Shown here: positions 2,995-52,919 of the stretch, one piece after another
Numbering within the stretch: the first letter of the stretch is position 1
Layout: the number at the start of each line of letters is the position of its first letter
Origin: Candidatus Muproteobacteria bacterium
Lineage (GTDB): Bacteria; Pseudomonadota; Gammaproteobacteria; Acidiferrobacterales; SPGG2
Length of the DNA: 64,000 nt
Assembly (NCBI GenBank): GCA_003251795.1
Contig: QKEI01000055.1
Coordinates: forward strand, 8,593-72,592
Reading direction: 5' to 3'
Translations under genes and position numbers: made by a program
The notes under the pieces: model-generated
The model's input: the letters and a program-made list of their open reading frames with translations, nothing else
Database searches by the model: none
Told to the model about the DNA's origin: nothing

Positions 2995-3759
2995 GTGAGC
3001 TCGATCTTGACTGAGCCCAGCCTAATCGTCATTGTTTGGTGCGCGCTGGTACTGGCGCTGGCTGGCGCCGTCAAAGGCATACTCGGTATCGGTTTGCCGA
3101 TCATCTCTATCCCGTTGCTCGCGCTGGTGATGCCGGTGCCGCAAGCGGTGGCGCTGATGCCACTGCCTATTTTGTTTTCCAATATCTGGCAGTCCTTCCA
3201 TGGCGGCTATTTCCTAAAGACACTGCGTCGTTTTTGGGCTTTGCTGCTGGGGTTAATTATCGGGACGGTCATCGGTACAAAGGTGCTTTCCACCGTGCAT
3301 CCGCACATGCTCTACGTGTTGGTCGGTGTGGTGGTCGTTATCTTTTCGCTCACGAGTTACTTGCAGCCGCAGTTGCGTGTGGCTCCGCACCATGAACGCT
3401 GGCTGGCGCCCACGGCAGGGTTGATCGGCGGACTGCTGGGTGGTCTGTCGACCATCTTCGGTCCACCGCTCATCATTTTCCTCGTGGCGCTGCATTTACA
3501 GAAGGACGAATTCGTCGGCACCATCTCGACGTTCTATCTGATCGGTGTGCTGCCGCTGATACTAGCACTCGGCGCTTTCCATATGATGGGCCAGAGAGAG
3601 CTGGTAGCTTCGTCGCTGGCGACCATTCCGTTACTGGCCGGTGTGGGAATTGGCCAAATATTGCGAACGCGCATTGCGCAGGAAGGTTTTCGCCGGGTGT
3701 TGCTGGTGATGCTGACATTGCTGGGGTGTGGTCTGGTGGTGCGGACGCTGCTGGCCTAA
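2995..3759 (+). CDS. TauE/SafE (DUF81) family anion-exporter-like membrane protein
   Basis: The polytopic hydrophobic protein begins VSSILTEPSLIVIVWCALVLALAGAVKGILGIG. The ORF-track N-terminal extension (2623-2994) overlaps the qor-like gene in another frame and is Arg/Pro-rich junk. A GTG at 2995 (or TTG at 3007) is the plausible start. Confidence 0.7.
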   Translation: MSSILTEPSLIVIVWCALVLALAGAVKGILGIGLPIISIPLLALVMPVPQAVALMPLPILFSNIWQSFHGGYFLKTLRRFWALLLGLIIGTVIGTKVLSTVHPHMLYVLVGVVVVIFSLTSYLQPQLRVAPHHERWLAPTAGLIGGLLGGLSTIFGPPLIIFLVALHLQKDEFVGTISTFYLIGVLPLILALGAFHMMGQRELVASSLATIPLLAGVGIGQILRTRIAQEGFRRVLLVMLTLLGCGLVVRTLLA

Positions 3760-4436
3760 AGCAGATCTTTCATATCGCGATGGCGACGGGAGATGTAGTC
3801 TTTCATCGCCGCCTCCGCCGCTTCCGGTTGACGGCGACTGATGGCATTAACGACGGAATCGGTCATCTCGTCATGCGCGTGCGCGGTGCCGTGCCAATCG
3901 CCGGTTTTTTTGGCGATGTAGAACCACAGACGCAGGTGCTGATTAAAGATCCGTGGAACAACCTCTTCCAGGTAGCTGTTGCGTGACGCCCGTGCCAACA
4001 GTTGGTGGAAGCGGTAGTCCAGCGATACGTAGTGGTCGATATCGTTTTCCGCTGTCGCTTGCGCCAGTTGTGAATGCAGCCGATAGAGCTCGGCGATTTC
4101 CTTTTCCGAGCCGCGCGTTGCCGCCAATTTTGCCGTGAATCCTTCGATCAGACCGCGGAACTCGTAGATCTGTTGCACGCTGGTGGCGCTGACCTCGGCG
4201 ACAAACATGCCACGATTGGGCAAGTGACTGACAAGTCCCTCGATGGCCAGTCGTTGCAGGGCCTCGCGTATCGGTGTGCGACCGATACCCAGATCCGCCA
4301 TCAATACCTTCTCTGCCAATAGCGCGCCTGGCGCCAACTCCAGGCGGGTGATCTTTCTTACCAGAATCTGATAGGCCTTCTCGGCCAGTGACACGCTGGC
4401 GCTGTGACCGGCTTCGCTGACTTGCGCCTGGCTCAT
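3756..4436 (-). CDS. GntR-family transcriptional regulator (FadR/FCD subfamily)
   Basis: N-terminal winged helix (LAEKVLMADLGIGRTPIREALQRLAIEGLV) plus a helical FCD-like C-terminal domain. Its ATG overlaps the stop of the upstream COG0523 gene (ATGA at 4433-4436). Confidence 0.85.
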   Translation of the reverse strand: MSQAQVSEAGHSASVSLAEKAYQILVRKITRLELAPGALLAEKVLMADLGIGRTPIREALQRLAIEGLVSHLPNRGMFVAEVSATSVQQIYEFRGLIEGFTAKLAATRGSEKEIAELYRLHSQLAQATAENDIDHYVSLDYRFHQLLARASRNSYLEEVVPRIFNQHLRLWFYIAKKTGDWHGTAHAHDEMTDSVVNAISRRQPEAAEAAMKDYISRRHRDMKDLL

Positions 4437-5398
4437 TGCGACCTTGCTGTGGAGGCGTGTTCCTTTCCTCGACGGACCGAGGCAAAACGGGCCTCGACCG
4501 CATCGCGATCAAGACCGCTGCCGATAAAGACCATCTGCTGTTTGTGCTGTACGTCGCTCACTGTGATGTCAAGTTGCCCGGAGGCGAACTGTACCAGTGC
4601 GGGTTTGCCGTCGATCAGCATGAACCCCTTGGCGCGCCACACATTGTCCGGTAGCTCGGCAAAAAACCGCTCGACTTCGCTGCGCTCGGCATTGCCGTTG
4701 GCCTCGAGGACGAACGATTCGACCGGCGGATGGGTAGTGTGCCCATGGTCATGTCCGTGGGCATCATCCGCGTGGCCGTGTGCGGCCGGCAGCGGGCGCC
4801 CGAGCAACGCACTTTCATCGCCATCGAGCAGAAACCCGAGATCAGCCTCACACTGTTCGGTGAACAACACGGTCGCCTTGGGGTTGAGCTGCTGCACCTG
4901 CTCGCGCACCGATTCCAGCTCAGCGGGCGTGGCAAGATCTATCTTATTCAACAGCAGCACATCGGCGTTGGCGATTTGGGCGCTGTAGAAATCGCCGAGT
5001 CCGTCAAGCAGCCGCGAAAACTTGGGGGCGTTGACCACGGTAACCAGCGGGCCGATATCGACGTTGGAGCGAAAGTCCGGGTCAGCGAGCGTTTCCAGCA
5101 TATCTTCGGGTTGCGCAACACCCGTTGCTTCCACCACGACGCGGTCGACGCCGCTCACCTCGTGCAGCTCCTCGATCGCGTTCAGCAGCGAACCCTTGAG
5201 AGTGCAGCACAAACAGCCGGAGGTAAGCTCGACCACATCGATGTTGCGCCCCTCGATAATGGCACCATCGATGCCGACCTCACCGAACTCGTTGACGATT
5301 ACCGCCAGTCGCTGCTGCTGCGCGCGTTCGGCCAGGATATGACGCACCAGCGTGGTCTTGCCGGAGCCGAGGAAACCGAACAGCAGATTCACTCTCAC
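4433..5398 (-). CDS. COG0523 / CobW-family G3E GTPase metallochaperone with His-rich insert
   Basis: P-loop GFLGSGKTTL, the CxCC metal motif (SGCLCCT) and a His-rich stretch AAHGHADDAHGHDHGHTTHP. The GTG start overlaps the stop of the activase gene by 1 nt. Confidence 0.85.
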   Translation of the reverse strand: MRVNLLFGFLGSGKTTLVRHILAERAQQQRLAVIVNEFGEVGIDGAIIEGRNIDVVELTSGCLCCTLKGSLLNAIEELHEVSGVDRVVVEATGVAQPEDMLETLADPDFRSNVDIGPLVTVVNAPKFSRLLDGLGDFYSAQIANADVLLLNKIDLATPAELESVREQVQQLNPKATVLFTEQCEADLGFLLDGDESALLGRPLPAAHGHADDAHGHDHGHTTHPPVESFVLEANGNAERSEVERFFAELPDNVWRAKGFMLIDGKPALVQFASGQLDITVSDVQHKQQMVFIGSGLDRDAVEARFASVRRGKEHASTARSQ

Positions 5399-7302
5399 TA
5401 CTGCGCCCCTGCGGCCGCGGAGGCCTGGGCAGTTGCCGGACTCGAGAACGTGATGGCGTCGACGAACACGTCCTGAAACTCGGGGCGAGTTGCCAAAGCG
5501 ACGTGTTCGATGCGCTGCGCGATCGTATACGTGCGCGCGCGCTCGGTCTCGGACAACAACGCCAGCTGCGCACCCAGGTGCGCGGCATTGCCAAAATAAG
5601 TAATCTTGTGCAACGGCAACGGCGGCAGCAAGCGAATGCGCACCGCGCTCTCGATATTGATGTAGTTACCGAAGCCGCCGCAGAGCATGATCTCTTCGAT
5701 CTGTTGATCGGTGACGCCCATCACCTTCTGCAGCATCATAATGCCGGAGTAGATCGCGCCCTTGGCCAGTTGCAGCTGGCGGATGTCGGTCTGCGTCAGC
5801 GTAACGGCCTCATCCTTGCCGGCATCAGTCGCCTTTACCAACATAAACTCACAGCCATGTGGGTTGTCGATCAGACGTTCGCGTATCGCTGGAGGCAGCG
5901 CCTCGCGGTCACGCCGGCGCAGCAATCCACTGCTATTCACCACCTCGGCGTCGAGCATCTTGGCCACCGCGTCGATCAGGCCCGAACCGCAAATGCCGAT
6001 GGCCGGGGCATTGCCGATGACCTGACAGTGCACATCGGTGTCGATTTGGACCTTTTCGATAGCGCCGACGGCACCACGCATGCCATGGCGGATCTGTGCA
6101 CCTTCGAGCGCCGGACCGGCTGGTGCCGAGCAAGCCATGAGCTTGTCCTTCGAGCCCATCACCACCTCGCCGTTAGTACCGATGTCGACCATTACGCGAA
6201 TCTTGTCGCTATCGTAGATGCGCGTGGCCAGCACGGCGCCCATGGTGTCGGCACCGACAAAACCGGCCACGATCGGCAACAGGCAAACGCGGGCATTGGG
6301 TGCCGCCTTTAGCGGCAGTTCTTTCGCCGCCAGTACCAGCGGGTCGCGTACCACCGGGGCATAGGGCGCGAGCCCGACGTAGCTGACGTCGATGCCTAAG
6401 AAGATATGATGCATGCAGGTGTTACCGACTACCACGATCTTGTAGATGTGCTCCGGTGCTACCTTCGCCTGTTCGCAGGCTTCCTTTATGAAGTCATTGA
6501 TAGCATTGAGCGCACGGACACGCAGAGTCGTAAGTTTCTTTTCGTCGAACTGCGCATAAGCGATGCGCGACATCAGGTCGCCGCCGTAGGTCGCTTGAGG
6601 ATTGACGTTGCCCACTGACGCCAGCTCCTCACCGGTCACGAGATCGAGCAGGGTGCCGACGATACTAGTGGTGCCGATATCGAACGCCATACCGTATTTG
6701 TGTGCGCTGGTATCGCCAGCTTCCACGTCGATAACGTTTTGGTTGAACGTCGTAACGGTGAGCAATCCCTTCTGTGCGCGTAGCACGGCTGGCAGCTTGC
6801 GCATGATTTCTAACGGGATCTCGCGGGACACGTCGACGGCGAGCGCCGTCAGCATCTCTTCCACGTCGGAGGTCTGGTGATGCTCGTCGGCAGGTGCCTT
6901 GGCGACGATCACACGCTTTTCCACGCCAGAATCGAGGGCGACGCCAGCGCTATCCAGAGCACGCCCGGAAGCGAGAATCTGGTGTCCGACCTCGGTCTTC
7001 GGCGGCGCTACCAGCACGGTGCAATCGGAGACGATTCTGGTTTGACAGGAGAGCCGGAACTGCTCGTGCACCTCTTCGTGACCGAGCTGAATCGTGTCCT
7101 GCACGGTCGGCGGCGGTACGTCGCCCTTCAGCACCTTCACCCGGCAACTACGACAGCGGCCACGTCCGCCACAGGTAGCAGCGATGTCGACACCGGCCGC
7201 TTGCGCCGCCTGCAACACCGTTTCGCTGAGTGCGGCCCGCGCAGTCCGGCCACGGGTTTGTGCGTTCGGACCGACGAAGGTCACCTCGACGCTGCTGGTC
7301 AT
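5398..7302 (-). CDS. Corrinoid reductive activase (RACo-type): N-terminal plant-type [2Fe-2S] ferredoxin + ASKHA ATPase domain
   Basis: N-terminus CGGRGRCRSCRV...C (2Fe-2S) is followed by a large ASKHA/DUF4445-like body (DIGTTS, DIGTNGE, GFGNY motifs). It lies directly downstream of the corrinoid protein gene. Confidence 0.85.
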   Translation of the reverse strand: MTSSVEVTFVGPNAQTRGRTARAALSETVLQAAQAAGVDIAATCGGRGRCRSCRVKVLKGDVPPPTVQDTIQLGHEEVHEQFRLSCQTRIVSDCTVLVAPPKTEVGHQILASGRALDSAGVALDSGVEKRVIVAKAPADEHHQTSDVEEMLTALAVDVSREIPLEIMRKLPAVLRAQKGLLTVTTFNQNVIDVEAGDTSAHKYGMAFDIGTTSIVGTLLDLVTGEELASVGNVNPQATYGGDLMSRIAYAQFDEKKLTTLRVRALNAINDFIKEACEQAKVAPEHIYKIVVVGNTCMHHIFLGIDVSYVGLAPYAPVVRDPLVLAAKELPLKAAPNARVCLLPIVAGFVGADTMGAVLATRIYDSDKIRVMVDIGTNGEVVMGSKDKLMACSAPAGPALEGAQIRHGMRGAVGAIEKVQIDTDVHCQVIGNAPAIGICGSGLIDAVAKMLDAEVVNSSGLLRRRDREALPPAIRERLIDNPHGCEFMLVKATDAGKDEAVTLTQTDIRQLQLAKGAIYSGIMMLQKVMGVTDQQIEEIMLCGGFGNYINIESAVRIRLLPPLPLHKITYFGNAAHLGAQLALLSETERARTYTIAQRIEHVALATRPEFQDVFVDAITFSSPATAQASAAAGAQ

Positions 7303-7303
7303 A

Positions 7304-8011
7304 CTATCCCCACGGTTCGCGCGGCTGCTTCACCCGATCCAGCGCCAGCTTCACCGCTTCCATCGCGTCTTTACCCCAGCCATCGGCGCCGCACTCGTCC
7401 GCCCAATCCTGGGTCGTGGGCGCGCCACCGATCAGTATCTTAACCTTGTTGCGAAAACCCGCCTTCTCAAACTCCTCGATGGTCACCTTCTGATAATACA
7501 CGGTGGTCGACAGCAATGCCGAGAAACCGACAAGATCAGCCTTTTCCTTTTGTGCGGTTTCAATGAAGCGATCCGGGTGCACGTCGGTACCTAGGTTGAT
7601 GACGTTGAAGCCGGCGTTCTCCAGCATGATCGTTACTATAGATTGGCCGATATCGTGCATATCGCCGAGCACGGTACCCATGACAAAAGTGCCGACGGGT
7701 TTTTCAGCCTGTGCCGCCAGCAGCGGGCGGATCAGCGCCAGCCCCGCTTTCATGGCACGTGCCGTAATTAGCATTTCAGGAATGAAGATAATCTGCGCGC
7801 TGAAACGGTCGCCCTGCAGGTTGAACCCTGGAAATAGCCCGTCATCCAGAATGATCCGCGGGTTGATCCCGACATCAATGGCCTTGCGCACGAACTCATC
7901 GGTATAGGTGTGATTGCCGTTTTCGACCGCTTCCCATAAGGAGCTCCACTCCCAGCCATCGGGGGCACGCCCCTGCCAACCCTCTGGAATCTGTAATACT
8001 GGTTCTGTCAT
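7304..8011 (-). CDS. Corrinoid (B12-binding) protein
   Basis: DxHxxG base-off/His-on motif (GDMHDIGQSIV), SALLSTT and a GGAP loop, with an N-terminal helical cap. I chose the ATG at 8011 (GGGAGG upstream) over the TTG at 8032. Confidence 0.85.
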   Translation of the reverse strand: MTEPVLQIPEGWQGRAPDGWEWSSLWEAVENGNHTYTDEFVRKAIDVGINPRIILDDGLFPGFNLQGDRFSAQIIFIPEMLITARAMKAGLALIRPLLAAQAEKPVGTFVMGTVLGDMHDIGQSIVTIMLENAGFNVINLGTDVHPDRFIETAQKEKADLVGFSALLSTTVYYQKVTIEEFEKAGFRNKVKILIGGAPTTQDWADECGADGWGKDAMEAVKLALDRVKQPREPWG

Positions 8012-8038
8012 TCTATTTCTTTCGCCTCCCAAGGGTGT

Positions 8039-9208
8039 TCAATTAAGGGGATACTTGCCGTACACGCCATAGTCTTTTTGCGCTTCGATCATGGCGTAGA
8101 TGTTCTGGATCGGCACATCCGCGAGTATGTAATGCGAGGGCGAGAAGATATAACCGCTGCCCGGGGCCAGATTTTTCATGACTTCGAGCACGCCTTTTCT
8201 GACATCTTCTACCTGGCCGCGCGGCAGCAAGCGCTGCACGTCGAAGCCGCCGACAAAGGCGATCTTATCGCCATATTTTTGCTTGATGCCGGCCTGGTCC
8301 TTGTTGCCACCGGTCGGCTGCATCAAGCCGGAGAGATGCACGCCGAGCTCGACTTCGTCCGGAATGATCGGCGAGTAATCACCGCAGGAGTGCAGCTTGA
8401 TGAATATCTCTGGATTTTCCTTCTTGAACTCACTAAACATGTGCTGAAAACGCGGTTTCGCCAGCTCCCGCCATTGCACCGGCGATAGCATCATCGATTG
8501 CTGGGCACCGACATCGTCACCTACTCGGATCATGTCGACACCGAGCTTGACGGCATTTTTGCCGAGCGCCGTATAGTATTCGGTCAGGCCATCGAGCACG
8601 CCGTGGATAAGCTCGGGCTGATCGAACAAATACAAGAAGAAGTTTTGCGTGCCGACCAGATGCGCGTAGGCGGCTTCGATCAACGTCGAAGAAAGATCGA
8701 CGATAATGAAGTAATCGTCTTGATACGCCTTGCAAATGTCTTTGATCGGGTCCAGCAGGGCAGGGTCATTGGGGTCCGGCCACTTGTAGTTTTTCAGGTC
8801 CTCCAACGACGTGATCGGATGCGATTTAGGAAAGTTCTCCGGCACCACCTTGGCCGGTCCCCAGAACTCCTGAGTCTTTATGAATTGATGATGTTCTTCT
8901 TCCGTGCGCCCTTTCAGACCGCTCTTTCCGTAGCCCACGCCGAAATGGTTGGTCCAGGTCTCGCCGATAGGAATGGGGCGATGCGAGAACTCGGCGTTGA
9001 TGCCGATTTGGTAAATGATGGCGTCATTACCGAGTCGCAGCTCGAGCTCGGGGTTGTGCTTGAGCCCAGTGCCGGTCTTGGTGACGCCGTAGACACGGGC
9101 GATCTTTTCTTTGGCCTCGCTCTTCATACGATACAGCACCGGTACCCGGTCGACCTTTTCGTGACGCAGGACGCGGATAAAGCGCTCGCGGGGTTTCAGT
9201 TCTTTCAT
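8039..9208 (-). CDS. URO-D-family (MtaA/CmuA/MtvB-like) methyltransferase, candidate substrate:corrinoid MT-I
   Basis: URO-D TIM-barrel fold signature. The N-terminus RERF..L..EKVDRVPV and the HxC zinc motif (KLHSCGD) are present. I chose the ATG at 9208, which is preceded by GGAGG; the ORF-track N-terminal 50 aa is unlikely coding. Confidence 0.8.
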   Translation of the reverse strand: MKELKPRERFIRVLRHEKVDRVPVLYRMKSEAKEKIARVYGVTKTGTGLKHNPELELRLGNDAIIYQIGINAEFSHRPIPIGETWTNHFGVGYGKSGLKGRTEEEHHQFIKTQEFWGPAKVVPENFPKSHPITSLEDLKNYKWPDPNDPALLDPIKDICKAYQDDYFIIVDLSSTLIEAAYAHLVGTQNFFLYLFDQPELIHGVLDGLTEYYTALGKNAVKLGVDMIRVGDDVGAQQSMMLSPVQWRELAKPRFQHMFSEFKKENPEIFIKLHSCGDYSPIIPDEVELGVHLSGLMQPTGGNKDQAGIKQKYGDKIAFVGGFDVQRLLPRGQVEDVRKGVLEVMKNLAPGSGYIFSPSHYILADVPIQNIYAMIEAQKDYGVYGKYPLN

Positions 9209-9248
9209 GGGATTGCCTCCGGCCGTTGCGGGTGGTGTCCTAGGCCTA

Positions 9249-9269
9249 TAATATATTTTTGATATATTA
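9249..9269. promoter_or_regulatory. AT-rich palindrome TAATATAT-TTTTG-ATATATTA between the MT-II and MT-I genes
   Basis: Perfect 8-bp arms, read directly. It is the only AT-rich island in the 116-nt MT-II/MT-I gap. Confidence 0.4.
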
Positions 9270-9324
9270 CCGGCTTCGGCCGCCCCGTCAACCTGGGAAC
9301 GCGCCAAGTTATTGGCGTTTGGGC

Positions 9325-10320
9325 CTAGGACGTGGTCCGGGCTTTTTCGGCCCGGCAATACTTCAAGTAGCGCAAGGCGTACTCGTCCTTGGCGGTCAGT
9401 GCGTCGGCAGCATAACGGAATTCCTCGAAGACTTTCGGGGGATTCATGATGGGGTCTACCATCAGGGCATCGCAGCCCGCCAGGATCGCCAGCGTGACGA
9501 AGGCATGGTTGAGCAATTTGCGCCGTGGCAACCCGAAGGACACATTGCTATGCCCACCGAAAATATGAACCTCCGGGTACATCTGCCGGAGCGTCCGCAC
9601 CGCGTCGAGATAGTGATTACCGTAATCAGGTCCGGCTCCGATCGGAAACACCAATGGATCGAGAAAACGGTCGGTGATGGCAATGTTGCCCTTATCCATC
9701 ATCTCCATGCACTGAGTTAGATTGGCTACACGTTCCTCGGCATTCTGCGGCATGCCTGAGCGCCCACTGGCATTGGCGATGAGGATGGCATTCTTTTCGG
9801 TCGCCATTTCCACCAGCACTTGGCGACCCTCTTCCAGATTCACCGAGTTGATAGCCGGCCGGCTTTTGCTGGCGTCGTGCGCCTCGAGTCCGGCATGTAT
9901 GGTCTTGGAATCGGAGGAGTCGATGGCGACGACCGAGTCAGTAATAGATTGCGCAGTTTTGACTAACCACTGCATCCATTCGAAACGTTCCTCCGGGTAG
10001 ACCGACATCTCGTCCACGCAAAGGTCGATAATGTGCGCGCCCGCTTTCTCCTGCGCGCGAATCGCCCAAGTGATGTAATTCAGGTCTTTCTTGCGCAGCG
10101 CCTGGGCGATATGCGGAATCATAAAGCTTTTTTGTTCCGCCGGGTTTTCCGGGAATATATCTGTGCAGTCAAGCATACGTTTGCTGCCGTCGAGATCGGT
10201 ATAGGCGATTCCCACCTTGCCGTCTTCGCGCACCACACGCGGGCTACTGGCCTTGATCTTGCGTGTGGCGTTGAAGTTCTCGCCAATAATTATCAGGCCG
10301 CCCTTGTTGTTGATGCTCAT
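9325..10320 (-). CDS. Pterin-binding methyltetrahydrofolate:corrinoid methyltransferase (MT-II; MetH module-2/AcsE-like)
   Basis: Motifs align with the MetH pterin module: IIGENFNATRK, IIDLCVDE, AIDSSD, INSVN, DPLVFP, GGHSNVSFG. A strong GAGGAGG RBS precedes the start. Confidence 0.8.
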   Translation of the reverse strand: MSINNKGGLIIIGENFNATRKIKASSPRVVREDGKVGIAYTDLDGSKRMLDCTDIFPENPAEQKSFMIPHIAQALRKKDLNYITWAIRAQEKAGAHIIDLCVDEMSVYPEERFEWMQWLVKTAQSITDSVVAIDSSDSKTIHAGLEAHDASKSRPAINSVNLEEGRQVLVEMATEKNAILIANASGRSGMPQNAEERVANLTQCMEMMDKGNIAITDRFLDPLVFPIGAGPDYGNHYLDAVRTLRQMYPEVHIFGGHSNVSFGLPRRKLLNHAFVTLAILAGCDALMVDPIMNPPKVFEEFRYAADALTAKDEYALRYLKYCRAEKARTTS

Positions 10321-10439
10321 TACCCCTCCTCGAAACTCAGATTTGTAAAGGATTGCGCGATGATTGACATCGTTACGTGTGAACCGGCAAATTAATCGAG
10401 ATATTTGTGGTCATCTTGCATAGACGTTTGGCCGGCATC

Positions 10440-10730
10440 TTACGCTTTTGATTTTTGCAGCGCCGTAGCCTTGATCGTGTCGTACTGCGCCTCCAGCTCA
10501 TCCTTAACCGTTTGTGCCACCCCCTGCGCCGTGCCCTCGCGCTCCACGGGTGCACCCCTATTAAAACCTTCGAGATAGGCATCAGTCCCAGCCAGCCCGC
10601 GCTTCATCGCGATCAGATCGATCAATTCTTGGAAGCGACTGCTCAGCTGTTGTTTGCTGGTGCCCGTAGCATCAGTGGCTTCTACCACCGAGGGGATCTC
10701 TTGCCAGTAGAGAATCGAGTATTTGGCCAT
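10440..10730 (-). CDS. Small conserved protein (resembles the 'virulence factor' domain family seen beside corrinoid/THF methyltransferase genes)
   Basis: 96 aa. The pattern YWQEIPSVV...RF..LID..AM..G...TDAYLEGFNRG matches my recollection of that family. AAGGAG RBS 8 nt upstream of the ATG at 10730. Confidence 0.5.
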   Translation of the reverse strand: MAKYSILYWQEIPSVVEATDATGTSKQQLSSRFQELIDLIAMKRGLAGTDAYLEGFNRGAPVEREGTAQGVAQTVKDELEAQYDTIKATALQKSKA

Positions 10731-10861
10731 CAATTATGCTCCTTTTCTAAGCGGCTTGCGGGAACAGCACATTCACATCGGCAATATCGACCTCGCCGGC
10801 GTGGACGCCGACATGGGCATGGTAAAGAATAAGCGATACCGCATCTCAATGGTGATGTCCG

Positions 10862-11533
10862 ATGCTGCAGAGTGAGATCAGCGCCTTCATTCGCGCGCAC
10901 ACAACGGTCGATGCGCCGCCCTTGTGCCCCGAGATCACACTGCATCTGGCGTCGGCGCTTATGCCGATTTGGGAGGCGAGAGAAGCTATGGGTAGCGCTA
11001 CACCACCACCCTATTGGGCCACAGCGTGGGCGGGTGGCCAGGCATTGGCCCGCTATGTGCTGGATCACCGGAGGCTGGTTCTGCATAAGCGCGTTTTGGA
11101 TTTTGGCTCCGGATCCGGGGTTTGCGCTATCGCCGCGGCAAAAGCCGGTGCCGCCAAGGTTCAGGCGGCGGAGCTTGACCCATTCGGTCTGCGAGCTATT
11201 GCTATGAATGCGGCGCTGAATACGGTGATCGTTCATACGATCTCTATCGATATGACTGTCGTCACCAGATGCAACTGGGACGTCGTACTGGCAGGTGATC
11301 TCTGGTACGAGCGCTTGTTCGCCGAGCGCGCTACTGCGTGGCTACGAAACCTGGCAACAAACGGTTGTATTGTCTTGTTAGGTGACATGCGACGTAACTA
11401 CTTTCCAAAACAGGGTATAGAAGAGTTGGCGCGATACTCTGTCGCCACACCCGTTGAGATCGAGCGCGAGCCGATTTCGACCGGCGTTGTTTGGCGCATG
11501 CTGCCCGATGGCATGAGGGCAGCTGTCAGCTGA
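10862..11533 (+). CDS. Class I SAM-dependent methyltransferase (COG3897 / Methyltransf_16-like)
   Basis: SAM motif I VLDFGSGSGVCAIAAAKAGA, then the acidic E of motif II (AAELD) and GDLWYE. It converges on metF with an 8-nt overlap. Confidence 0.7.
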   Translation: MLQSEISAFIRAHTTVDAPPLCPEITLHLASALMPIWEAREAMGSATPPPYWATAWAGGQALARYVLDHRRLVLHKRVLDFGSGSGVCAIAAAKAGAAKVQAAELDPFGLRAIAMNAALNTVIVHTISIDMTVVTRCNWDVVLAGDLWYERLFAERATAWLRNLATNGCIVLLGDMRRNYFPKQGIEELARYSVATPVEIEREPISTGVVWRMLPDGMRAAVS

Positions 11534-12461
11534 TATCGGCGTCGACGCTGAAGCCTTTGCCGTCCTTGGCGAGCGTAAACTCGCCGTCGATTACTGCATA
11601 GCTCCATTTTGCCGACTTGCGCAACCCGCCCAATGGGTACATGTGCACGCCGGCGATGCCGCAGTTGCCGTCGCTGGCGCGATAACGAGCGAGCTCCGTC
11701 AGCAGTCGGTCCGGCGCGGATACGGTCATGAGCTTAGCGAGGTTGCGAGCCTGCTTGGTCAGAAATCGCATGGACGGCCCGATGCCACAGGCTTTCGCGT
11801 GGTTCAATAGTGTCTTCAACGTCGCCAATCCGGGTATGCCGATATAAACAGGCAGCCGGTTGCCCTCCGCCTGAATCTTCCGGTCCCAGTCGATGATCGG
11901 CTGCGCGTCGAAACAGAACTGGGTAACGACATAAAGTCGCGCACCCGTGCGTTCGGCGAAATCGTTCTTCCACTTGAGCGCCTGTTTAATAGCCTCGTCG
12001 GCGATATCTGGGCTCCCCTCGGGATGGCCGGCCACCCCGATCTTGTTGATGCCATATCGATCGAACAGTCCGGTTTCCAGGAGCTGCATGGAGTCGCTGA
12101 ATTCACCCAGCGGCTTATCGATCGCGCCCGCGATCACCAGTGCCTGTGTCAATCCAACCTCCTGCTGCAAGCGCAGTAGACTGCGCTCAAGGAACGCCCT
12201 TGTGGGAATGCTGCGCGCGGCGAGGTGCGGCACCGGGTTGAAGCCTTCTTGCTGCAGGCGCTTAGCGACGGCGATGGTCTGGTCGAAATCCGACCCTGGC
12301 AGAAAAGTGATGTAGACGGTGGTGCCCGGACGCAGATGCTGGCGATAATCGGCGATCTTGGCGGCCGCCCCCGGGGTCGTTTCGGCGGTAAAGCCCGACA
12401 TCAAGTCGATGATTTGTTGCTTCACGTTGCCGCCGGCCGCGGCCTCGTTCGCCAGTGACAT
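11526..12461 (-). CDS. metF: Methylenetetrahydrofolate reductase (MetF-family, copy 1)
   Basis: MTHFR-fold motifs: TPGAA.., YITFLPG, VPHLAARS, GVAGHPEGSP, VTQFCFD. The start is ambiguous (ATG 12461 vs GTG 12482). Confidence 0.8.
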   Translation of the reverse strand: MSLANEAAAGGNVKQQIIDLMSGFTAETTPGAAAKIADYRQHLRPGTTVYITFLPGSDFDQTIAVAKRLQQEGFNPVPHLAARSIPTRAFLERSLLRLQQEVGLTQALVIAGAIDKPLGEFSDSMQLLETGLFDRYGINKIGVAGHPEGSPDIADEAIKQALKWKNDFAERTGARLYVVTQFCFDAQPIIDWDRKIQAEGNRLPVYIGIPGLATLKTLLNHAKACGIGPSMRFLTKQARNLAKLMTVSAPDRLLTELARYRASDGNCGIAGVHMYPLGGLRKSAKWSYAVIDGEFTLAKDGKGFSVDADIS

Positions 12462-12558
12462 GATTAACCCTGCAGCCTGCACGGAATAAGGCGTAAGGAA
12501 TCATCTTAGCATTCACCTCGCGCGCAGAGCTATGCATGCGGATCATATCTGACCAGCG

Positions 12559-13542
12559 TCAGGCGCGCGCTTCAGCAAGCTCTACCGTAATCTTTACCGG
12601 TCCCAGCAGGCGTTCGATCTCGCTGTATGACGGCGCTGCGGCCTTCGCGCGCGCACCCAGGGCCTCGCTCATGGCGCGCAGGTGCACCGGCGTGGTGCCG
12701 CAACAACCGCCGATGATACGCGCACCGGCATCACGCGCGAGGCAGGCGTAATCCGCCATAATCTGCGGGGTGCCGTCATACTCGATCTTGCCCCCCTTGC
12801 CGATATGCGGCACGCCACAGTTACTCTTGGCGACAATCACTTGATCGGCGCTGGCGCCTTTCTTGAGGCCGATCACCGAGTCGAGCAGCTGCGCCGGACC
12901 CACGCCGCAATTGGCGCCGAAGGCGATCGGTTTCACGTCGAGATCATGCGTAAGGCGTATCGCATCATGCGGCTTCATGCCCATCATGGTGCGCCCGCCG
13001 GTATCGAACGTCATGGTGGCCACGTACGGCAAACCGGCGCGCACGACACCTCGGATTGCTGCAAACAGCTCGTCATGCGAGTACATGGTTTCGATCCAGG
13101 CGATGTCGGCGCCGCCTTCTTTCAACGCAGCAGCTTGCTCGGCGAAGGCGTCTTCGGCTTCCTGCGCAGTGCGCTCCCCTAGCGGTTCCAATAGATCGCC
13201 CGTAGGTCCAATGTCGCCAGCGACGATGACGGTACGACCGGCCGCATCGGCAACCTCCCGTGCCAGTGTGGCGGCGGCACGATTGACTTCGTGCACGCGG
13301 CCTTCGATGCGATGCAGTTTGAAGCGGTAGCGGTTAGCGGTAAATGAATTGGTCAAAATGATGTCGGCACCCGCGTCGATGAAGCCCTGATGGATAGAGC
13401 ACACACGGTCCGGGTGGTCTATGCACCAGACCTCGCCGGCGGCGCCATTCGCGAGGCCGAGATCGAATAGGTTGGTTCCCATGGCGCCATCGGCCAAAAC
13501 GACATCTTTCTTTGCCAGTAGCTGGCTCAACGGGTTTGACAT
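12559..13542 (-). CDS. Homocysteine S-methyltransferase domain protein (MetH module-1-like, Zn-dependent)
   Basis: DGAMGT, GADIILTNSF, ANCGVGP and GGCCGTTP (the Zn Cys triad is intact). I chose the ATG at 13542 with GGAG upstream; the ORF-track extension is Arg-rich and overlaps the regulator gene. Confidence 0.85.
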   Translation of the reverse strand: MSNPLSQLLAKKDVVLADGAMGTNLFDLGLANGAAGEVWCIDHPDRVCSIHQGFIDAGADIILTNSFTANRYRFKLHRIEGRVHEVNRAAATLAREVADAAGRTVIVAGDIGPTGDLLEPLGERTAQEAEDAFAEQAAALKEGGADIAWIETMYSHDELFAAIRGVVRAGLPYVATMTFDTGGRTMMGMKPHDAIRLTHDLDVKPIAFGANCGVGPAQLLDSVIGLKKGASADQVIVAKSNCGVPHIGKGGKIEYDGTPQIMADYACLARDAGARIIGGCCGTTPVHLRAMSEALGARAKAAAPSYSEIERLLGPVKITVELAEARA

Positions 13543-13564
13543 AACTGCTCTCCTTGGACGGCTG

Positions 13565-14590
13565 TCAGGCCGCTTCCGATCGGCGGCGAGAAGGCGCACG
13601 CCTGCTTTGTATGCTTGTCCACAGCGACACCGTGAGTTTATCGCTTCTTGATTTGGCGGATGCGCTGAGGTGTCGGACGTTCGCATCGACCAGGCCCGCA
13701 GCGCGGCACCAGCCCATCACCTCATCATCCGCGAATCCGAGACGGCGATGTGCAAATTCGGTGCGCAAGAACTCCAGCTGGTGGCGCGCGAAGTCTACTA
13801 TCAACAGACGTCCCTCTGGTTTTAGCGTGCGCGCCGCCTCCGCCACGGCGGCGCCAGGGTTGTCGAGAAAGTGCAAGACGTGGTGAATCGTCACGGCGTC
13901 GAACGATGCATCGGGCACCGGCAGGTTGTAGATGTCGCCATGGCGCACTTGGCAATGGCGCAGGTTCAGCGCCTCCAGGTTCGCGCGCGCGACGGCAAGC
14001 ATCTCACGACTGCTGTCGATCCCGAGACCGCGCTTGATACGAGGCGCGAACACCTGCAGGATGCGCCCGGTACCCGTGCCAAGATCGAGCAGCTCCGCGA
14101 TGGGTTTGTCACTTAATGCCTCGAGCATAGCCTGTTCGACTTTCGCCTCGGCCACGTACAAGGAGCGAATCGAGTCCCAATCCGCAGCATTGCGTCGGAA
14201 GTATTCCGCTGCGGCTGCTGCATGTTCCTTAATAATGGTATCGAGTCGTTGCAGGTCACGACCAAGCTGGGGATCATTGGCCGGTACCAGCTCAAGTAGG
14301 TTGTGCGCCAGAAGTGCGCCCAAGCCGCGATCCGCCACGCGGTAAAACACCCATGCACCCTCCGGCGAACGCTCTACCAAACCGGCGTCGCACAGTAGCT
14401 TCAGATGGCGGCTTACGCGTGGCTGACTCTGACCGAGGATACGCGTGAGCTCTGATACCGTGAGCTCGGCGCGCCCCAGTAATGCCAACAGGCGCAATCG
14501 CGTATGCTCACCAGCTGCGCGTAAGGCTGTTAATAGCGGTTCCACGGATAGTGCGGCGGGTTTATTAAGAGTCGATACGTATATAAACAT
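13565..14590 (-). CDS. sahR: ArsR-type HTH fused to a SAM-methyltransferase-fold domain (SahR-like SAH-responsive regulator of the methionine/C1 cycle)
   Basis: The N-terminal ArsR wHTH (EHTRLRLLALL..LTVSELTRILGQSQPRVSRHLKLL) is followed by LDLGTGTGRIL and an acidic loop of a class I MT fold. It lies immediately upstream of the Hcy-MT and metF genes. The start is uncertain (ATG 14590 or GTG 14545). Confidence 0.7.
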   Translation of the reverse strand: MFIYVSTLNKPAALSVEPLLTALRAAGEHTRLRLLALLGRAELTVSELTRILGQSQPRVSRHLKLLCDAGLVERSPEGAWVFYRVADRGLGALLAHNLLELVPANDPQLGRDLQRLDTIIKEHAAAAAEYFRRNAADWDSIRSLYVAEAKVEQAMLEALSDKPIAELLDLGTGTGRILQVFAPRIKRGLGIDSSREMLAVARANLEALNLRHCQVRHGDIYNLPVPDASFDAVTIHHVLHFLDNPGAAVAEAARTLKPEGRLLIVDFARHQLEFLRTEFAHRRLGFADDEVMGWCRAAGLVDANVRHLSASAKSRSDKLTVSLWTSIQSRRAPSRRRSEAA

Positions 14591-15466: not shown

Positions 15467-16678
15467 ATGCCTGAGGTCTTCGCCGTCGTCGGAGCTGGCC
15501 ACTGTGCGGGGCAAGCGGCCGCCAGCCTGCGTCAGCAAGGCTTCGCGGGTGACATCGTGATCATCGGCGAAGAGCCGCATGTCCCCTATCAACGACCGCC
15601 TTTGTCGAAGAAATTTCTCATCGGCGAGCTGCCGCTCGAGCGCGTGTACCTGCGCCCGCCAAAATTTTACCGGGACAACAATATCGAACTCTTGCTCGAT
15701 ACCCGGGTAGTGGCGTTGCGTCGGCGCGAGCATGAAATCGTCCTCGCGGACGGCAGGCGGCGGCACTACGATAAGCTGCTGTTGGCGACCGGCAGCAGCC
15801 CAAGACGCTTGCAGGTTACCGGCGTAGATTTGCCAGGCATCTGCTACTTGCGAACGATCGCCGATGCGCAACGCATACAACCGCACTTGCGGGCCGAGAA
15901 GAACCTGGTTGTTATTGGCGGAGGCTACATCGGCTTGGAAGTGAGCGCAGTGGCCGCACAACGCCGGATGCGAGTCACCCTGCTCGAAGTTGACGGTCGT
16001 ATTCTCAATCGTGTTGCTGCGCCGGTGATCTCGGATTTCTTTGTGCAACTGCATCGCCAGCACGGTGTCGACATCCGTTGTAACGCGCGCGTGCTGCGTT
16101 TCGAGGGCAGCGAACGGGTGACCGGTGTGATCTGTGAGGATGGTCGCATAGAGGCGGACTTGGTCGTTATCGGCATAGGAATTGCGCCCAATACCGAGTT
16201 AGCACAATCCGCTGGTTTGCCGTGCGGCAATGGCATTATTGTTGACGAGTACTGTCAGACCGCCGATGCCGCTATCTTCGCCGCCGGTGACTGTAGCAAC
16301 CACCCTAATCCATTGTTGCAGCGCCGCCTGCGTCTGGAGTCGGTACACAATGCCGTCGAGCAGGGTAAGACGGCGGCCGCCAATATGTGTGCCAAAGGGC
16401 AGCGCTATGCGGAAATACCGTGGTTTTGGTCTGACCAGTACGACGTCAAGTTGCAGATCGTTGGCCTGGCAGCCGGTTACGATCAGTTGGTGCAGCGCGG
16501 CCGTATGGAGGAAGGTGGGTTCGCGCTGTTTTACCTGAAGGACGGTGTGCTTATCGCGGTCGATGCTATCAACAACCCTAGAGAATACATGGCTTGCAAA
16601 AAATTGATCCCGCAGCGGCTACGCATCGCCCCTGAACGCTTGGCCGATCCGACCGTTGCGATGCAGGACATGGCCTAG
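15467..16678 (+). CDS. NAD(P)H:ferredoxin reductase (putidaredoxin/rubredoxin-reductase-type FAD oxidoreductase)
   Basis: Two Rossmann motifs (VVGAGHCAG, VIGGGYIGLE), the PPLSK motif and a C-terminal reductase dimerisation-domain pattern WFWSDQYD. Confidence 0.85.
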   Translation: MPEVFAVVGAGHCAGQAAASLRQQGFAGDIVIIGEEPHVPYQRPPLSKKFLIGELPLERVYLRPPKFYRDNNIELLLDTRVVALRRREHEIVLADGRRRHYDKLLLATGSSPRRLQVTGVDLPGICYLRTIADAQRIQPHLRAEKNLVVIGGGYIGLEVSAVAAQRRMRVTLLEVDGRILNRVAAPVISDFFVQLHRQHGVDIRCNARVLRFEGSERVTGVICEDGRIEADLVVIGIGIAPNTELAQSAGLPCGNGIIVDEYCQTADAAIFAAGDCSNHPNPLLQRRLRLESVHNAVEQGKTAAANMCAKGQRYAEIPWFWSDQYDVKLQIVGLAAGYDQLVQRGRMEEGGFALFYLKDGVLIAVDAINNPREYMACKKLIPQRLRIAPERLADPTVAMQDMA

Positions 16679-16681
16679 GTG

Positions 16682-17002
16682 ATGGCCAAGGTTACGTTCA
16701 TTCAGCCAGATCATCGTCGGCGAACGGTGGAAATCGAAAACGGTTATACGGTCATGCAGGGGGCGACCGCGAACAACATAGCAGGTATTAAAGCGGAATG
16801 CGGTGGGGCTTGTTCCTGTTCGACCTGCCATTGTTATGTCGAGACCACGTGGTTTGATCGGCTACCGCCGGTGGAGGACGAAGAAGCCGGTCTACTTGAG
16901 TTCGCGTGGGAGCCGAAGCCAACGAGCCGTCTCACCTGTCAGCTCGTCGTGACCGACGAGCTTGATGGGTTGATCCTGTATGTACCGGAGCAGCAGCTGT
17001 AG
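16682..17002 (+). CDS. [2Fe-2S] ferredoxin, adrenodoxin/putidaredoxin type
   Basis: The cluster motif CGGACSCSTCHC...C (TCQ) is present. It abuts the reductase stop codon. Confidence 0.85.
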   Translation: MAKVTFIQPDHRRRTVEIENGYTVMQGATANNIAGIKAECGGACSCSTCHCYVETTWFDRLPPVEDEEAGLLEFAWEPKPTSRLTCQLVVTDELDGLILYVPEQQL

Positions 17003-17138: not shown

Positions 17139-17456
17139 ATGAGTGAGACCGGAATCAATTGGTATCGGGTAGCGGATTTGGACGAGTTGGCGGAGGGTGC
17201 GGTAAAGAAGGTCATCGCTGGCGAGCGAACCATTGCGCTTACGCATTTTGAAGGAAAATACGGCGCGCTCGACAACACCTGTCCTCATATGGGTGGTCCG
17301 CTGGCGGAGGGAACCATCGATTTCGGCGTCCTGATTTGTCCATGGCATGGCCGCGAGTATCATCCGCTCACGGGCGAGTGCGAAGCCTACGGTGAAGCAG
17401 TAACCACTTTTCCGGTAGAGGTGCGTAGCGACGGTATCTACATCGGTGTTTCATAG
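17139..17456 (+). CDS. Small soluble Rieske [2Fe-2S] protein (NirD/ferredoxin-like)
   Basis: CPHMGGPL ... CPWHGREY Rieske motifs. 105 aa with no signal peptide. Confidence 0.8.
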   Translation: MSETGINWYRVADLDELAEGAVKKVIAGERTIALTHFEGKYGALDNTCPHMGGPLAEGTIDFGVLICPWHGREYHPLTGECEAYGEAVTTFPVEVRSDGIYIGVS

Positions 17457-17550: not shown

Positions 17551-18042
17551 ATGGTTAATAGGCGTGGTTTCATAAAGGTTAGTTGTACCGGCGTTGCCGG
17601 ACTTGTGGTTGCTCGACATGGCATGCATTCTGTGGCGGCGCAGTCGCCTCAGACATCGGTCTACCCGATTGTCGATATTGCGCCGTTGTCGTCCATTGCC
17701 CGCGGTGCTGCCATTCCGTTCAGTTATCCCGACGAGCGCTCGCCGGCGCTGCTGCTACGGGTCAACGAACCCGCTGCCGCAGGCGTCGGTCCGAACAACG
17801 AAATCGTTGCCTATTCCACCCTGTGCACCCATAAGGGATGTCCCGTCAGTTACAAGCCTGAGCGCAAGCTGTTCATCTGTCCATGCCACTGGAGCACCTT
17901 CGATCCCGTGAAGTCGGGCACGCTCGTGATCGGCCAGGCGAGCGAAGCGCTGCCGCAGATTAATCTGCGCGTGCTCGCGGGCATGGTGCAGGCGCAGGGT
18001 GTGAGCGGCCTGATTTACGGCCGTTACACAAATATCGTTTAG
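17551..18042 (+). CDS. aioB: Arsenite oxidase small (Rieske) subunit with Tat signal
   Basis: Twin-arginine NRRGFIK, Rieske CTHKGCP...CPCHWSTFD and the C-terminal GLIYGR..N.. are typical of AioB. Confidence 0.85.
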   Translation: MVNRRGFIKVSCTGVAGLVVARHGMHSVAAQSPQTSVYPIVDIAPLSSIARGAAIPFSYPDERSPALLLRVNEPAAAGVGPNNEIVAYSTLCTHKGCPVSYKPERKLFICPCHWSTFDPVKSGTLVIGQASEALPQINLRVLAGMVQAQGVSGLIYGRYTNIV

Positions 18043-18055
18043 CTGGGATGCGCTA

Positions 18056-30250: not shown

Positions 30251-30396
30251 ATTCCCCTCCTAGTTATTTGGTGTGTTAGACCAAAACGATATTGACAAAT
30301 AGCCGGCTTCAATTCAATCTTCTAGAACTATGGAGGAGTCATCTGGCTGCGCGTTTTGGCGCAGTGCAGCGTGCGCACAACAACGAGGACCCCACC

Positions 30397-32508: not shown

Positions 32509-32519
32509 GGGGGGCGACC

Positions 32520-34409: not shown

Positions 34410-34427
34410 GCGCCACGGGAGTAGCGA

Positions 34428-36995: not shown

Positions 36996-37071
36996 TGCAA
37001 GAGTGCCATGGAACGGTGTGCTGTAAATGGGGTCAAGAAGTCTTAATTAGGAGGCTCAACTGGAGGTCGAT

Positions 37072-39856: not shown

Positions 39857-39902
39857 ATGCCCCAGCCAGTATTGTCGTCGATTGGCTGTCCGAGGGATAA
39901 GC

Positions 39903-40739: not shown

Positions 40740-40778
40740 TTCGCAAGCAAACGTGCCATAACCGTAACTAACGCCGCC

Positions 40779-42753: not shown

Positions 42754-42776
42754 CATGACGGCGCTGGCGATCGAAC

Positions 42777-46270: not shown

Positions 46271-46272
46271 GA

Positions 46273-49810: not shown

Positions 49811-49821
49811 ACTTTTTCCTG

Positions 49822-52910: not shown

Positions 52911-52919
52911 TCGATCGTC

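Follow-up and report, generated by a model that had tools for sequence, protein, structure and literature searches.

A conserved gene cluster predicted to encode a corrinoid-dependent, tetrahydrofolate-linked demethylase in uncultured proteobacteria

Which methylated compound, if any, is the substrate of a gene cluster that holds all the usual parts of a corrinoid methyltransferase system is the question raised by a 64,000-nucleotide stretch of DNA from a Candidatus Muproteobacteria bacterium (contig QKEI01000055.1, positions 8,593 to 72,592; the whole stretch is hereafter called the window). A preliminary description, made from the sequence alone, regarded seven of its genes as a complete system in the style of Mtv, Odm and Cmu. 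Our analysis indicates that the cluster is real and strongly conserved, being found so far only in uncultured, probably oxygen-respiring proteobacteria, a group in which comparable systems are uncommon, and that it probably encodes a corrinoid-dependent, tetrahydrofolate (THF)-linked demethylase for a methylated compound. No published description of this operon was found in the literature.

Based on Pfam and NCBIfam domain calls, seven consecutive open reading frames (ORFs) occupy 3756-10733 on the minus strand, and every domain that had been assigned to them was confirmed (Table 1); the gene described simply as encoding a small conserved protein is conserved and was further assigned to the PF13769 family. 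The genes had been considered mostly translationally coupled, which holds for four of the six junctions: a gap of 6-27 nucleotides lies between the genes for MT-I and the corrinoid protein, a 1-nucleotide gap between those for the corrinoid protein and RACo, a 1-nucleotide overlap between RACo and COG0523, and a 4-nucleotide overlap between COG0523 and GntR. The other two junctions are wide, with 119 nucleotides between the PF13769 and MT-II genes and 116 nucleotides between the MT-II and MT-I genes, the latter gap containing a promoter-like site.

Table 1. Positions of the operon and of neighbouring features in the window, with the basis of each assignment and, for the operon proteins, the identity of homologues in other bacterial classes to the window protein.
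Feature	Position	Strand	Basis	Identity across classes
GntR/FCD transcriptional regulator, final operon gene	3756-4436	-	PF00392 E 1e-16, PF07729 E 3e-26	51-73%
COG0523 (CobW/ZigA-like) metallochaperone GTPase	4433-5398	-	PF02492 E 2e-50, PF07683 (CobW_C) E 1e-14	43-64%
RACo-type reductive activase of corrinoid protein ([2Fe-2S] and ASKHA ATPase)	5398-7302	-	Fer2, RACo_linker, Raco_middle, RACo_C_ter	61-75%
Corrinoid (B12-binding) protein	7304-8032	-	PF02607 and PF02310; start TTG 8032 or ATG 8011	76-90%
MT-I candidate, URO-D-superfamily methyltransferase of 389 amino acids	8039-9208	-	PF01208 E 4e-35	76-88%
Promoter-like site and palindrome, candidate GntR operator	9250-9291	-	Motif reading, conserved upstream of MT-I in relatives	
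MT-II, predicted methyl-corrinoid:THF methyltransferase, pterin-binding TIM barrel	9325-10320	-	PF00809 E 1.5e-18	63-81%
Small PF13769 ('Virulence_fact') protein of 96 amino acids	10440-10730	-	PF13769 E 4e-13	
PrmA/Methyltransf_16-like S-adenosylmethionine (SAM)-dependent methyltransferase, divergent from the PF13769 gene	10862-11533	+	PF06325 E 3e-12	
Type-4 (S6MTHFR/MetF2-like) methylenetetrahydrofolate reductase (MTHFR), predicted CH3-THF oxidiser	11526-12482	-	PDB 7XG9/7XLF match	
Homocysteine S-methyltransferase module (Bmt/MtgE-like)	12559-13686	-	PF02574 E 1e-63; PRK07534 444 bits (cut-off 338)	
ArsR helix-turn-helix (HTH) and SAM-methyltransferase-domain regulator (SahR-like)	13565-14590	-	HTH_5 and Methyltransf_11	
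Conserved protein c7, 191 amino acids	14803-15378	+	Family without Pfam match	
Ferredoxin-NAD+ reductase	15467-16678	+		
[2Fe-2S] ferredoxin	16679-17002	+		
Rieske ferredoxin	17139-17456	+		
Arsenite oxidase aioB/aioA	17551-20545		NCBIfam equivalog cut-offs passed	
GlpF-type MIP channel (11 kb away)	21541-22446	+	PF00230 E 1e-45	
Psr/Phs-like molybdopterin oxidoreductase	30292-32508	+	PhsA 436 bits (cut-off 694)	
DmsB-like Fe-S subunit	32481-33080	+		
Met_synt_B12-like ORF running off the window end	63316-63999	+	Weak PF02965, E 4e-4	

As listed, the MT-I ORF runs from TTG 9358 and overlaps the MT-II gene. Because the 120 listed homologues are uniformly 389 amino acids long and begin with MKEL, except one of 404 amino acids, and because GGAGG is located 8 nucleotides upstream of ATG 9208, this ATG is almost certainly the true start, which would give a protein of 389 amino acids. 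Judged by its sequence, MT-I is neither a uroporphyrinogen decarboxylase (UROD) nor an orthologue of any characterised methyltransferase, as the MtaA-type models and the MtaA fold outscore those of HemE and UROD. The hemE model TIGR01464 gave 27 bits against a cut-off of 303, while the MtaA-type models scored 3-4 times higher (91 bits for PRK06252 and 82 bits for TIGR01463, mtaA_cmuA), both still under cut-off; the MtaA/MtbA equivalog models were missed by a wide distance (NF040654, 69 bits versus 400; NF041608, 49 versus 600). Sequence matches in PDB were limited to MtaA (E 3.6e-10) and two URODs. When an AlphaFold2 (AF2) model of MT-I (pLDDT 78, pTM 0.83) was used for a fold search, matches ranged from E 1e-15 to 1e-12, with MtaA 4ay7 as the best (E 1e-15, TM 0.67-0.76) and URODs next. 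A true HemE is ruled out by these NCBIfam scores and by the gene context, and the preliminary description was correct in keeping MT-I apart from the true decarboxylases. It was also correct about the HxC motif, which is found in LHSCG (H273 and C275) and aligned with LHICG of MtaA; both residues are conserved in the MT-I family, as is an invariant His359 that aligns with the downstream Cys of MtaA. The long insertions it reported amount to only ~20-40 amino acids in the N-terminal third, relative to MtaA and the nearest relatives.

A search for MT-I homologues in 5.8 billion proteins retrieved more than 120 clusters at 80-92% identity, and every source name that bears a taxon is a metagenome-assembled genome (MAG). 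The clade, with an internal identity of ~75-92%, corresponds to one representative in a 50%-cluster library, in which 371 representatives were matched at E 1e-30 or better. The next full-length relatives share 52% (353 amino acids) and 46% (586 amino acids) identity, and the remainder 39% or less; the nearest relatives are all unannotated metagenomic proteins with no informative names. In the 586-residue relative (P0126), a URO-D-like domain is naturally fused to a corrinoid-binding domain with the DxHxxG motif, which independently ties the MT-I family to corrinoid chemistry. On plasmids including pCMU01 of Methylorubrum extorquens CM4, tblastn with MT-I matched only CmuC (27% identity over 39% of the query), and no match to CmuA was found on pCMU01 at E 1e-5. 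MT-I is, by these comparisons, an isolated clade without a characterised member; they took in models or sequences of MtaA, HemE, CmuA and CmuC, and MtaA was the nearest solved relative.

The other proteins of the operon resemble components of known corrinoid systems. MT-II scored 204 bits with NCBIfam PRK07535 (cut-off 259), and its best PDB match is MT-II of the Desulfitobacterium hafniense O-demethylase (4o0q/4o1e, E 3e-30), followed by AcsE/MeTr (2yci, E 1e-25) and then the pterin modules of MetH. The corrinoid protein has the DxHxxG motif noted previously, in the form GDMHDIG; its best PDB matches are 1y80, MttC 7xcn and MtmC 3ezx, and it scored 177 bits with NCBIfam MtgC (cut-off 370). 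RACo, in whose translation a plant-type Cys cluster can be read, aligned over its full length with RACo of Carboxydothermus hydrogenoformans (3zyy, E 6e-105) and scored 439 bits with AcsV (cut-off 800). The translation of the COG0523 gene contains a GSGKT P-loop, CLCC and a His-rich stretch, and since its score with TIGR02475 CobW was 156 bits against a cut-off of 332, the protein is not CobW proper. The GntR/FCD protein fell under all NCBIfam equivalog cut-offs, and the PF13769 protein has no relative in NCBIfam or PDB.

Gene neighbourhoods were compared using one genome per GTDB species, which yielded 43 loci (designated by L numbers), all from MAGs. The hosts belong to Arenicellales (~27 loci), Acidiferrobacterales, Usitatibacter, Burkholderiales, Methyloligellaceae, Hyphomicrobiales, Hyphomonadaceae and Rhodospirillaceae, and the operon is also carried by Roseiarcus (L045/L046). 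In 30 of the 33 untruncated loci, from alpha-, beta- and gammaproteobacteria, the order MT-II, MT-I, corrinoid protein, RACo, COG0523, GntR is maintained, the exceptions being two loci with a relocated MT-II and one without RACo. The conserved gene order by which the preliminary description proposed to check its reading is therefore present in dozens of relatives. COG0523 is conserved in 33 loci and followed by a GntR homologue in ~34, and 32 loci have a PF13769 homologue close to the operon. Conservation is highest for MT-I and the corrinoid protein (76-92% identity). G+C is 54-56% across the MT-I, MT-II and PF13769 genes (8001-11000), compared to 57-64% in most of the flanking sequence; this low G+C together with the high identity across classes suggests lateral spread under strong constraint, and is consistent with lateral acquisition of the best-conserved genes.

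The direction in which methyl groups would flow is indicated by the gene next to the operon. This gene had been described as metF, and it does encode an MTHFR, but one of the type-4 kind, while a canonical metF is found elsewhere in the window (46273-47169; PF02219 E 2e-83). The adjacent protein matched PF02219 weakly (E 1e-7); it matched S6MTHFR (7XG9/7XLF) with E 2.5e-56 versus E 4e-7 for the canonical enzyme 1v93, and shares ~48% identity with S6MTHFR of Sphingobium and 39% with MetF2 of strain CM4 (E 5e-78). S6MTHFR from Sphingobium lignivorans SYK-6, the founding member of the type-4 MTHFRs, was shown to oxidise CH3-THF and barely uses NADH, and type-4 MTHFRs were proposed as CH3-THF oxidisers that co-occur with the THF-dependent demethylases LigM, DesA, CmuAB and Dmt (PMC11868366). 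The window protein retains seven of the ten signature residues of S6MTHFR (L48, P49, C219, P268, G270, G271 and L272). Its gene accompanies the operon in 30-32 related loci; in the Roseiarcus loci, tblastn found an ORF of 315 amino acids without a Pfam match but 57% identical to the window type-4 MTHFR, followed by purU. A biosynthetic metF is likewise paired with a catabolic metF2 in Ruegeria pomeroyi (PMC12478193). Since the adjacent MTHFR is type-4 and the canonical metF is separate, the sequences favour a catabolic direction, in which methyl groups would be delivered to THF for oxidation (X-CH3 to Co(I) to THF to CH2-THF). The canonical metF is followed by a second, partially matching homocysteine S-methyltransferase ORF (45413-47169 in all), and these two genes probably serve biosynthesis, as a counterpart to the type-4 MTHFR and MtgE-like genes at 11526-13686.

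The gap between the MT-II and MT-I genes contains a promoter-like sequence, TTGACG-16-TAATAT (9291-9264), overlapped by a perfect palindrome, AATATAT-N5-ATATATT (9250-9268), which occurs nowhere else in the window. An identical palindrome was found 50-60 nucleotides upstream of MT-I in L001, L002, L004, L006 and L036, and degenerate forms in L022, L035, L042 and the alphaproteobacterial L032 and L047. The palindrome makes a good candidate operator for the GntR/FCD regulator, a putative repressor that would be transcribed in the same unit. No B12 riboswitch or other known RNA was matched in the window at the Rfam gathering threshold.

From the domain and fold identities, the conserved synteny, the type-4 affinity of the MTHFR and the conserved palindrome, we infer the following catalytic steps, direction of flow, metal and regulation. 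MT-I would demethylate the donor and methylate the Co(I) corrinoid carried by the B12-binding protein, probably with the help of a metal held by His273, Cys275 and His359. MT-II would then transfer the methyl group from CH3-Co(III) to THF, and the type-4 MTHFR would convert CH3-THF to CH2-THF, feeding oxidation or assimilation of one-carbon (C1) units. The MtgE/Bmt-like protein is probably able to draw methyl groups off the same corrinoid protein for methionine. RACo would reduce accidentally oxidised Co(II) back to Co(I) with ATP and an electron, and metal loading is presumably the task of the COG0523 GTPase. By binding at 9250-9268, the GntR/FCD protein probably keeps the unit from MT-I to GntR repressed in the absence of an effector, which is probably a carboxylate.

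Several observations weigh against this demethylase model. The direction of flow is not fixed by sequence alone, because MtaA and similar enzymes run from methyl-cobalamin to a thiol. Three of the ten signature residues of the MTHFR differ (R78S, F215H and F269L), and its oxidising behaviour is therefore not assured. At the presumed metal site, the third ligand would be a His instead of the Cys of MtaA, and the AF2 confidence at residues 359-363 is below pLDDT 50. MT-II has moved elsewhere in L029, L032 and L047, and the Roseiarcus loci lack it. A gene of ~220 codons with a weak Met_synt_B12 match is located directly upstream of MT-II or MT-I in 36 related loci and is absent from this position in the window and L001; in the window, the ORF at the edge, a ~40% identical paralogue, may serve the operon in trans. 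All relatives of the operon come from MAGs, so that the model is based on sequence for every member, and no evidence among the components, the context or the relatives identifies the donor, just as the preliminary description had held that the donor could not be read from the sequence.

The alternative that best withstands these data, though still an unlikely one, is that a methyl-halide dehalogenase (a Cmu or Cdm variant) or an aromatic O-demethylase of the Mtv/Odm type was transplanted into aerobes. The window system has the same four-part set as Mtv, Odm, the D. hafniense enzyme and CdmBCA, namely a UroD-superfamily MT-I (to which CdmB and the O-demethylase MT-Is belong), a corrinoid protein, a MeTr-like MT-II and a RACo-type activase (PMC13222342). 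Its architecture and its MT-II, closest to that of the D. hafniense O-demethylase, both speak for this origin, as does the resemblance of the MTHFR to CM4 MetF2. GntR/FCD regulators include VanR-type vanillate sensors, which counts in favour of an O-demethylase. Against it, the MT-I clade stands alone, its closest full-length relative sharing no more than 52% identity. Different from Mtv, Odm and Cdm, the system resides in proteobacteria with genes for arsenite oxidase and Rieske oxygenases, has a type-4 MTHFR as its link where the others have the Wood-Ljungdahl pathway, and includes the extra conserved partners COG0523, GntR, PF13769 and c7 (about 190 amino acids); its MT-I clade is distinct as far as compared with MtaA, HemE, CmuA and CmuC.

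The Cmu system of M. extorquens CM4 (cmuA, cmuB, cmuC, metF2, folD and purU) is similar in that methyl groups are catabolised aerobically via a corrinoid and THF, with an MTHFR of the MetF2 type, and purU is linked to the operon in a relative. However, CmuA, in which MT-I and corrinoid protein are fused, shows no detectable similarity to the window MT-I, whose only match on pCMU01 is the short one to CmuC; and MT-II belongs to PF00809, whereas cmuB of pCMU01 is annotated as MtrH-like (tetrahydromethanopterin S-methyltransferase subunit H). RACo, COG0523 and GntR are not listed in the 21 kb around cmuB and cmuC on pCMU01, for which the PLSDB gene table is incomplete, cmuA being elsewhere on the plasmid. 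Membership in Cmu was rejected, as the proteins are separate here, CmuA is unmatched, and no PF13769 or c7 homologue is present on the CM4 segment.

We also considered that the cluster might be a methionine synthase of the split, cobalamin-dependent kind found in Phaeobacter and Ruegeria, with the URO-D protein as an accessory or an alternative thiol methylase, which we regard as quite unlikely. The homocysteine S-methyltransferase and SahR-like genes reported near the operon were both found, the former scoring above the PRK07534 cut-off and the latter matching only generic ArsR/SmtB and methyltransferase models in NCBIfam. As the listed ORF of the homocysteine S-methyltransferase overlaps the next gene, its true start is probably internal. 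With this homocysteine-binding module, all other MetH-type modules are present, and a Met_synt_B12-like gene accompanies the operon in most relatives. The same parts occur in Phaeobacter inhibens and R. pomeroyi (PMC5764234; PMC12478193), and Bmt of Sinorhizobium meliloti, PGA1_c13370 of P. inhibens and MtgE of R. pomeroyi were argued to be the homocysteine-binding module of a split methionine synthase that shares its corrinoid protein and MT-II with glycine-betaine demethylation (PMC12478193). On the other hand, of more than 40 loci only ~5 (among them L001, L030, L038 and L048) have a homocysteine S-methyltransferase homologue linked to the operon, while the URO-D gene is always present; a GntR regulator belongs to the operon itself, with a probable operator before MT-I; the linked MTHFR is predicted to be of the oxidising type; and a canonical metF with a second homocysteine S-methyltransferase ORF is located elsewhere in the window. 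Owing to this rare linkage, the methionine route is taken as a side branch: with a SahR-like gene adjoining, methionine could plausibly be made in the window from the methylated corrinoid protein, and this would complement rather than replace the demethylase.

Such a branch agrees with the experimentally supported MtgBCDE model of R. pomeroyi, in which MtgBCDE, MetF2 and RamA allow one corrinoid protein to serve both catabolism and methionine synthesis (PMC12478193), and with the two fates, THF or homocysteine, that had been proposed for the methyl group. MtgBCD(E) with MetF2 and RamA of R. pomeroyi and the split MetH of P. inhibens are likewise multi-subunit cobalamin methyltransferase systems in aerobic proteobacteria (PMC12478193; PMC5764234). 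Like the Mtg system, the window system comprises a separate corrinoid protein, a pterin-binding MT-II, a RamA/RACo activase, a second, presumably catabolic MTHFR and a Bmt/MtgE-type homocysteine module that could tap the same corrinoid protein. It differs in its MT-I, which in Mtg belongs to the MttB superfamily (PF06253) and acts on glycine betaine, and here to the URO-D superfamily (PF01208); PF06253 was matched by none of the 72 window ORFs scanned against Pfam, a scan that was not exhaustive. It also differs in that its genes form one compact operon with COG0523 and GntR and in that its corrinoid protein is below the MtgC cut-offs.

It is improbable that the flow is reversed, that is, from CH3-THF via the corrinoid protein to a URO-D enzyme that would act on a thiol or metalloid acceptor (for example sulfide, a small thiol, arsenite or selenide) in an MtaA-like manner for detoxification or biosynthesis. 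The closest solved or curated relatives of MT-I, MtaA and MtbA, do transfer methyl groups from cobalamin to a thiol via an HxC zinc site, arsenite oxidase and aquaglyceroporin genes are recurrent neighbours, and Kountz and Balskus proposed methyl-S or methyl-Se chemistry for Mlp homologues (PMC10418091). However, the linked type-4 MTHFR would consume rather than supply CH3-THF, purU is linked in the Roseiarcus loci, and the third zinc ligand of thiol methylases is not conserved in MT-I. Moreover, we know of no precedent for an ArsM-independent, B12-dependent enzymatic methylation of arsenite. MtaA, MtbA, MtsA and MtpA and the type 1 mlp clusters (PMC10418091) share with the window system the best sequence and fold matches, the aligned HxC and the corrinoid protein and activase partners, and differ from it in that identity is only ~20-25%, all curated cut-offs are missed and the third ligand is changed from Cys to His in MT-I. 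Type 1 mlp clusters have two or three Mlps and no H4folate methyltransferase, and occur only in anaerobes (PMC10418091); the assignment to them was rejected, as the operon has a single URO-D gene and an MT-II, and its host encodes aioBA and Rieske oxygenases. Taken together, the demethylase would work like the anaerobic Mtv, Odm and Cdm systems and the aerobic MtgBCD and Cmu systems, yet it appears to be a member of none, its MT-I being of another family than MtgB and not CmuA, and its general mechanism is conventional.

Among possible donors of the predicted demethylase, our order of preference is methyl-sulfur compounds (dimethyl sulfide, DMS; methanethiol; methylmercaptopropionate, MMPA; dimethylsulfoniopropionate, DMSP), methoxylated acids, methyl halides, and methyl-arsenic or methyl-selenium compounds. 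A methyl-sulfur donor is placed first only tentatively, and no single donor is placed higher. The recurrent neighbours, namely an aquaglyceroporin, arsenite oxidase, a Psr/Phs-like molybdoenzyme and c7, provide leads, short of proof, to a methyl-sulfur or a methyl-arsenic donor. The affinity of MT-I to the MtaA/MtsA side and its HxC site would suit thioether or thiol chemistry, and the type-4 MTHFR, common to methoxy-aromatic and chloromethane pathways, is another lead. The GntR/FCD regulator, together with a TRAP transporter and a coenzyme A (CoA) ligase that are found in both the window and L048, points to a carboxylate, for example MMPA, DMSP or a methoxylated acid. For a nearby CoA ligase and acyl-CoA dehydrogenase, a DmdB/DmdC-like identity was rejected, as no specific model matched. 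Physiological work pointed decades ago to an aerobic cobalamin-dependent DMS methyltransferase, which by 2019 had yet to be identified (PMC6548844). That the operon encodes this DMS/methanethiol methyltransferase of aerobic sulfur oxidisers is a more ordinary reading than the arsenic one below, and still an unlikely one.

The arsenic-related context points in another direction. The arsenite oxidase and Rieske oxygenase genes of the reported context are present, with aioB and aioA above the NCBIfam equivalog cut-offs and a Rieske oxygenase and reductase at 54331-58087. The aioBA genes, 68-80% identical among loci, directly flank the C1 module in the window, L001, L022, L029, L031 and L038, which represent three classes and 6 of ~13 non-Arenicellales loci. 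A pentapeptide-repeat gene and an MIP gene often accompany aioBA; a functional link and hitch-hiking on an island are both possible. MIP genes (55-77% identical) were found in 16 related loci, and in ~13 Arenicellales loci MIP is flanked by the type-4 MTHFR gene on one side and by the genes preceding MT-I on the other. The genes for the Psr/Phs-like enzyme and the DmsB-like subunit lie beside the operon in the alphaproteobacterial L029, L032, L047 and L048 (76-80% identity), and arsR-arsD is present in L047. The MIP channel, aioBA and the arsR-arsD of L047 point to arsenic, and methylotrophic methanogens demethylate dimethylarsenate by an unidentified route (PMC10579292). If the operon demethylated arsenicals (for example methylarsonate, dimethylarsinate, trimethylarsine oxide or arsenobetaine), pentavalent or onium arsenic would lose a methyl group to Co(I) and leave as a trivalent arsenical, which arsenite oxidase would re-oxidise and the aquaglyceroporin would carry. 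This would explain why aioBA and the GlpF-type channel are adjacent and why the Psr/Phs-like molybdoenzyme travels with the operon; even so, we hold this activity to be very improbable.

Other neighbours recur as well. The PrmA-like gene has a homologue in the same divergent position in ~7 loci (L029, L032, L038 and L045-L048). For c7, 139 homologues were found, none annotated; they lie near the operon in 33-36 loci, usually adjoining the type-4 MTHFR or the Rieske ferredoxin gene. The AF2 model of c7 (pLDDT 92.5) is a beta-sandwich with a weak LecB-lectin-like match; c7 has no match in Pfam or NCBIfam, and its sequence matches in PDB were to one blade of designed Kelch propellers. A Rieske ferredoxin gene follows c7 in L001, L029, L038, L045/L046 and L048, and the ferredoxins could act as electron donor for RACo or as acceptor for the MTHFR.

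A second URO-D-family gene (448 amino acids, 29% identical to MT-I, with HSCG) and a second corrinoid protein gene (40% identical) were found at 38510-41888, without an MT-II or RACo of their own. A Liv-type ABC transporter set lies upstream (33540-38259), and genes for a NarI-like membrane protein, a CSD protein and a LysR regulator downstream (41932-43984). This second module is within 20 kb of the main operon in L030 and in the Roseiarcus L045/L046 (79-81% identity). In L045/L046, the operon RACo (4237-6169) was called in two or three pieces, for which a frameshift or an assembly error is possible, and a second, intact RACo (679 amino acids) is located 8 kb off, adjoining the second URO-D/corrinoid module. 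Further along the window, 48911-53708 encodes a phosphonate-type ABC transporter (a PhnD-like binding protein, two permeases and an ATPase) and an ArsR-HTH fused to a domain of the low-molecular-weight protein tyrosine phosphatase/ArsC type, adding to the arsenic- and phosphonate-related content of the window. The Rieske oxygenase at 54331-58087 has 521 amino acids and is accompanied by a divergent LysR gene and a FNR/[2Fe-2S] reductase with a DmmA-like N-terminal domain, and this system resembles N-demethylating monooxygenases such as GbcAB.

Because the cluster is compact and six genes could be co-expressed, the nature of the donor is directly testable. MetH aside, methyl transfer by cobalamin enzymes has largely been seen as a chemistry of anaerobes, with Cmu and, since 2025, MtgBCD as the main aerobic exceptions. 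If the proposed function is correct, the operon would be a third aerobic system, with its own MT-I family, widespread in uncultured proteobacteria of marine, sediment and soil habitats, and it would widen the known demand for B12 in oxic habitats. The identity of the donor could close a gap by providing an aerobic DMS/methanethiol methyltransferase, a second route of DMSP/MMPA demethylation, a methyl-halide sink without cmu, or a demethylation of methyl-arsenic compounds.

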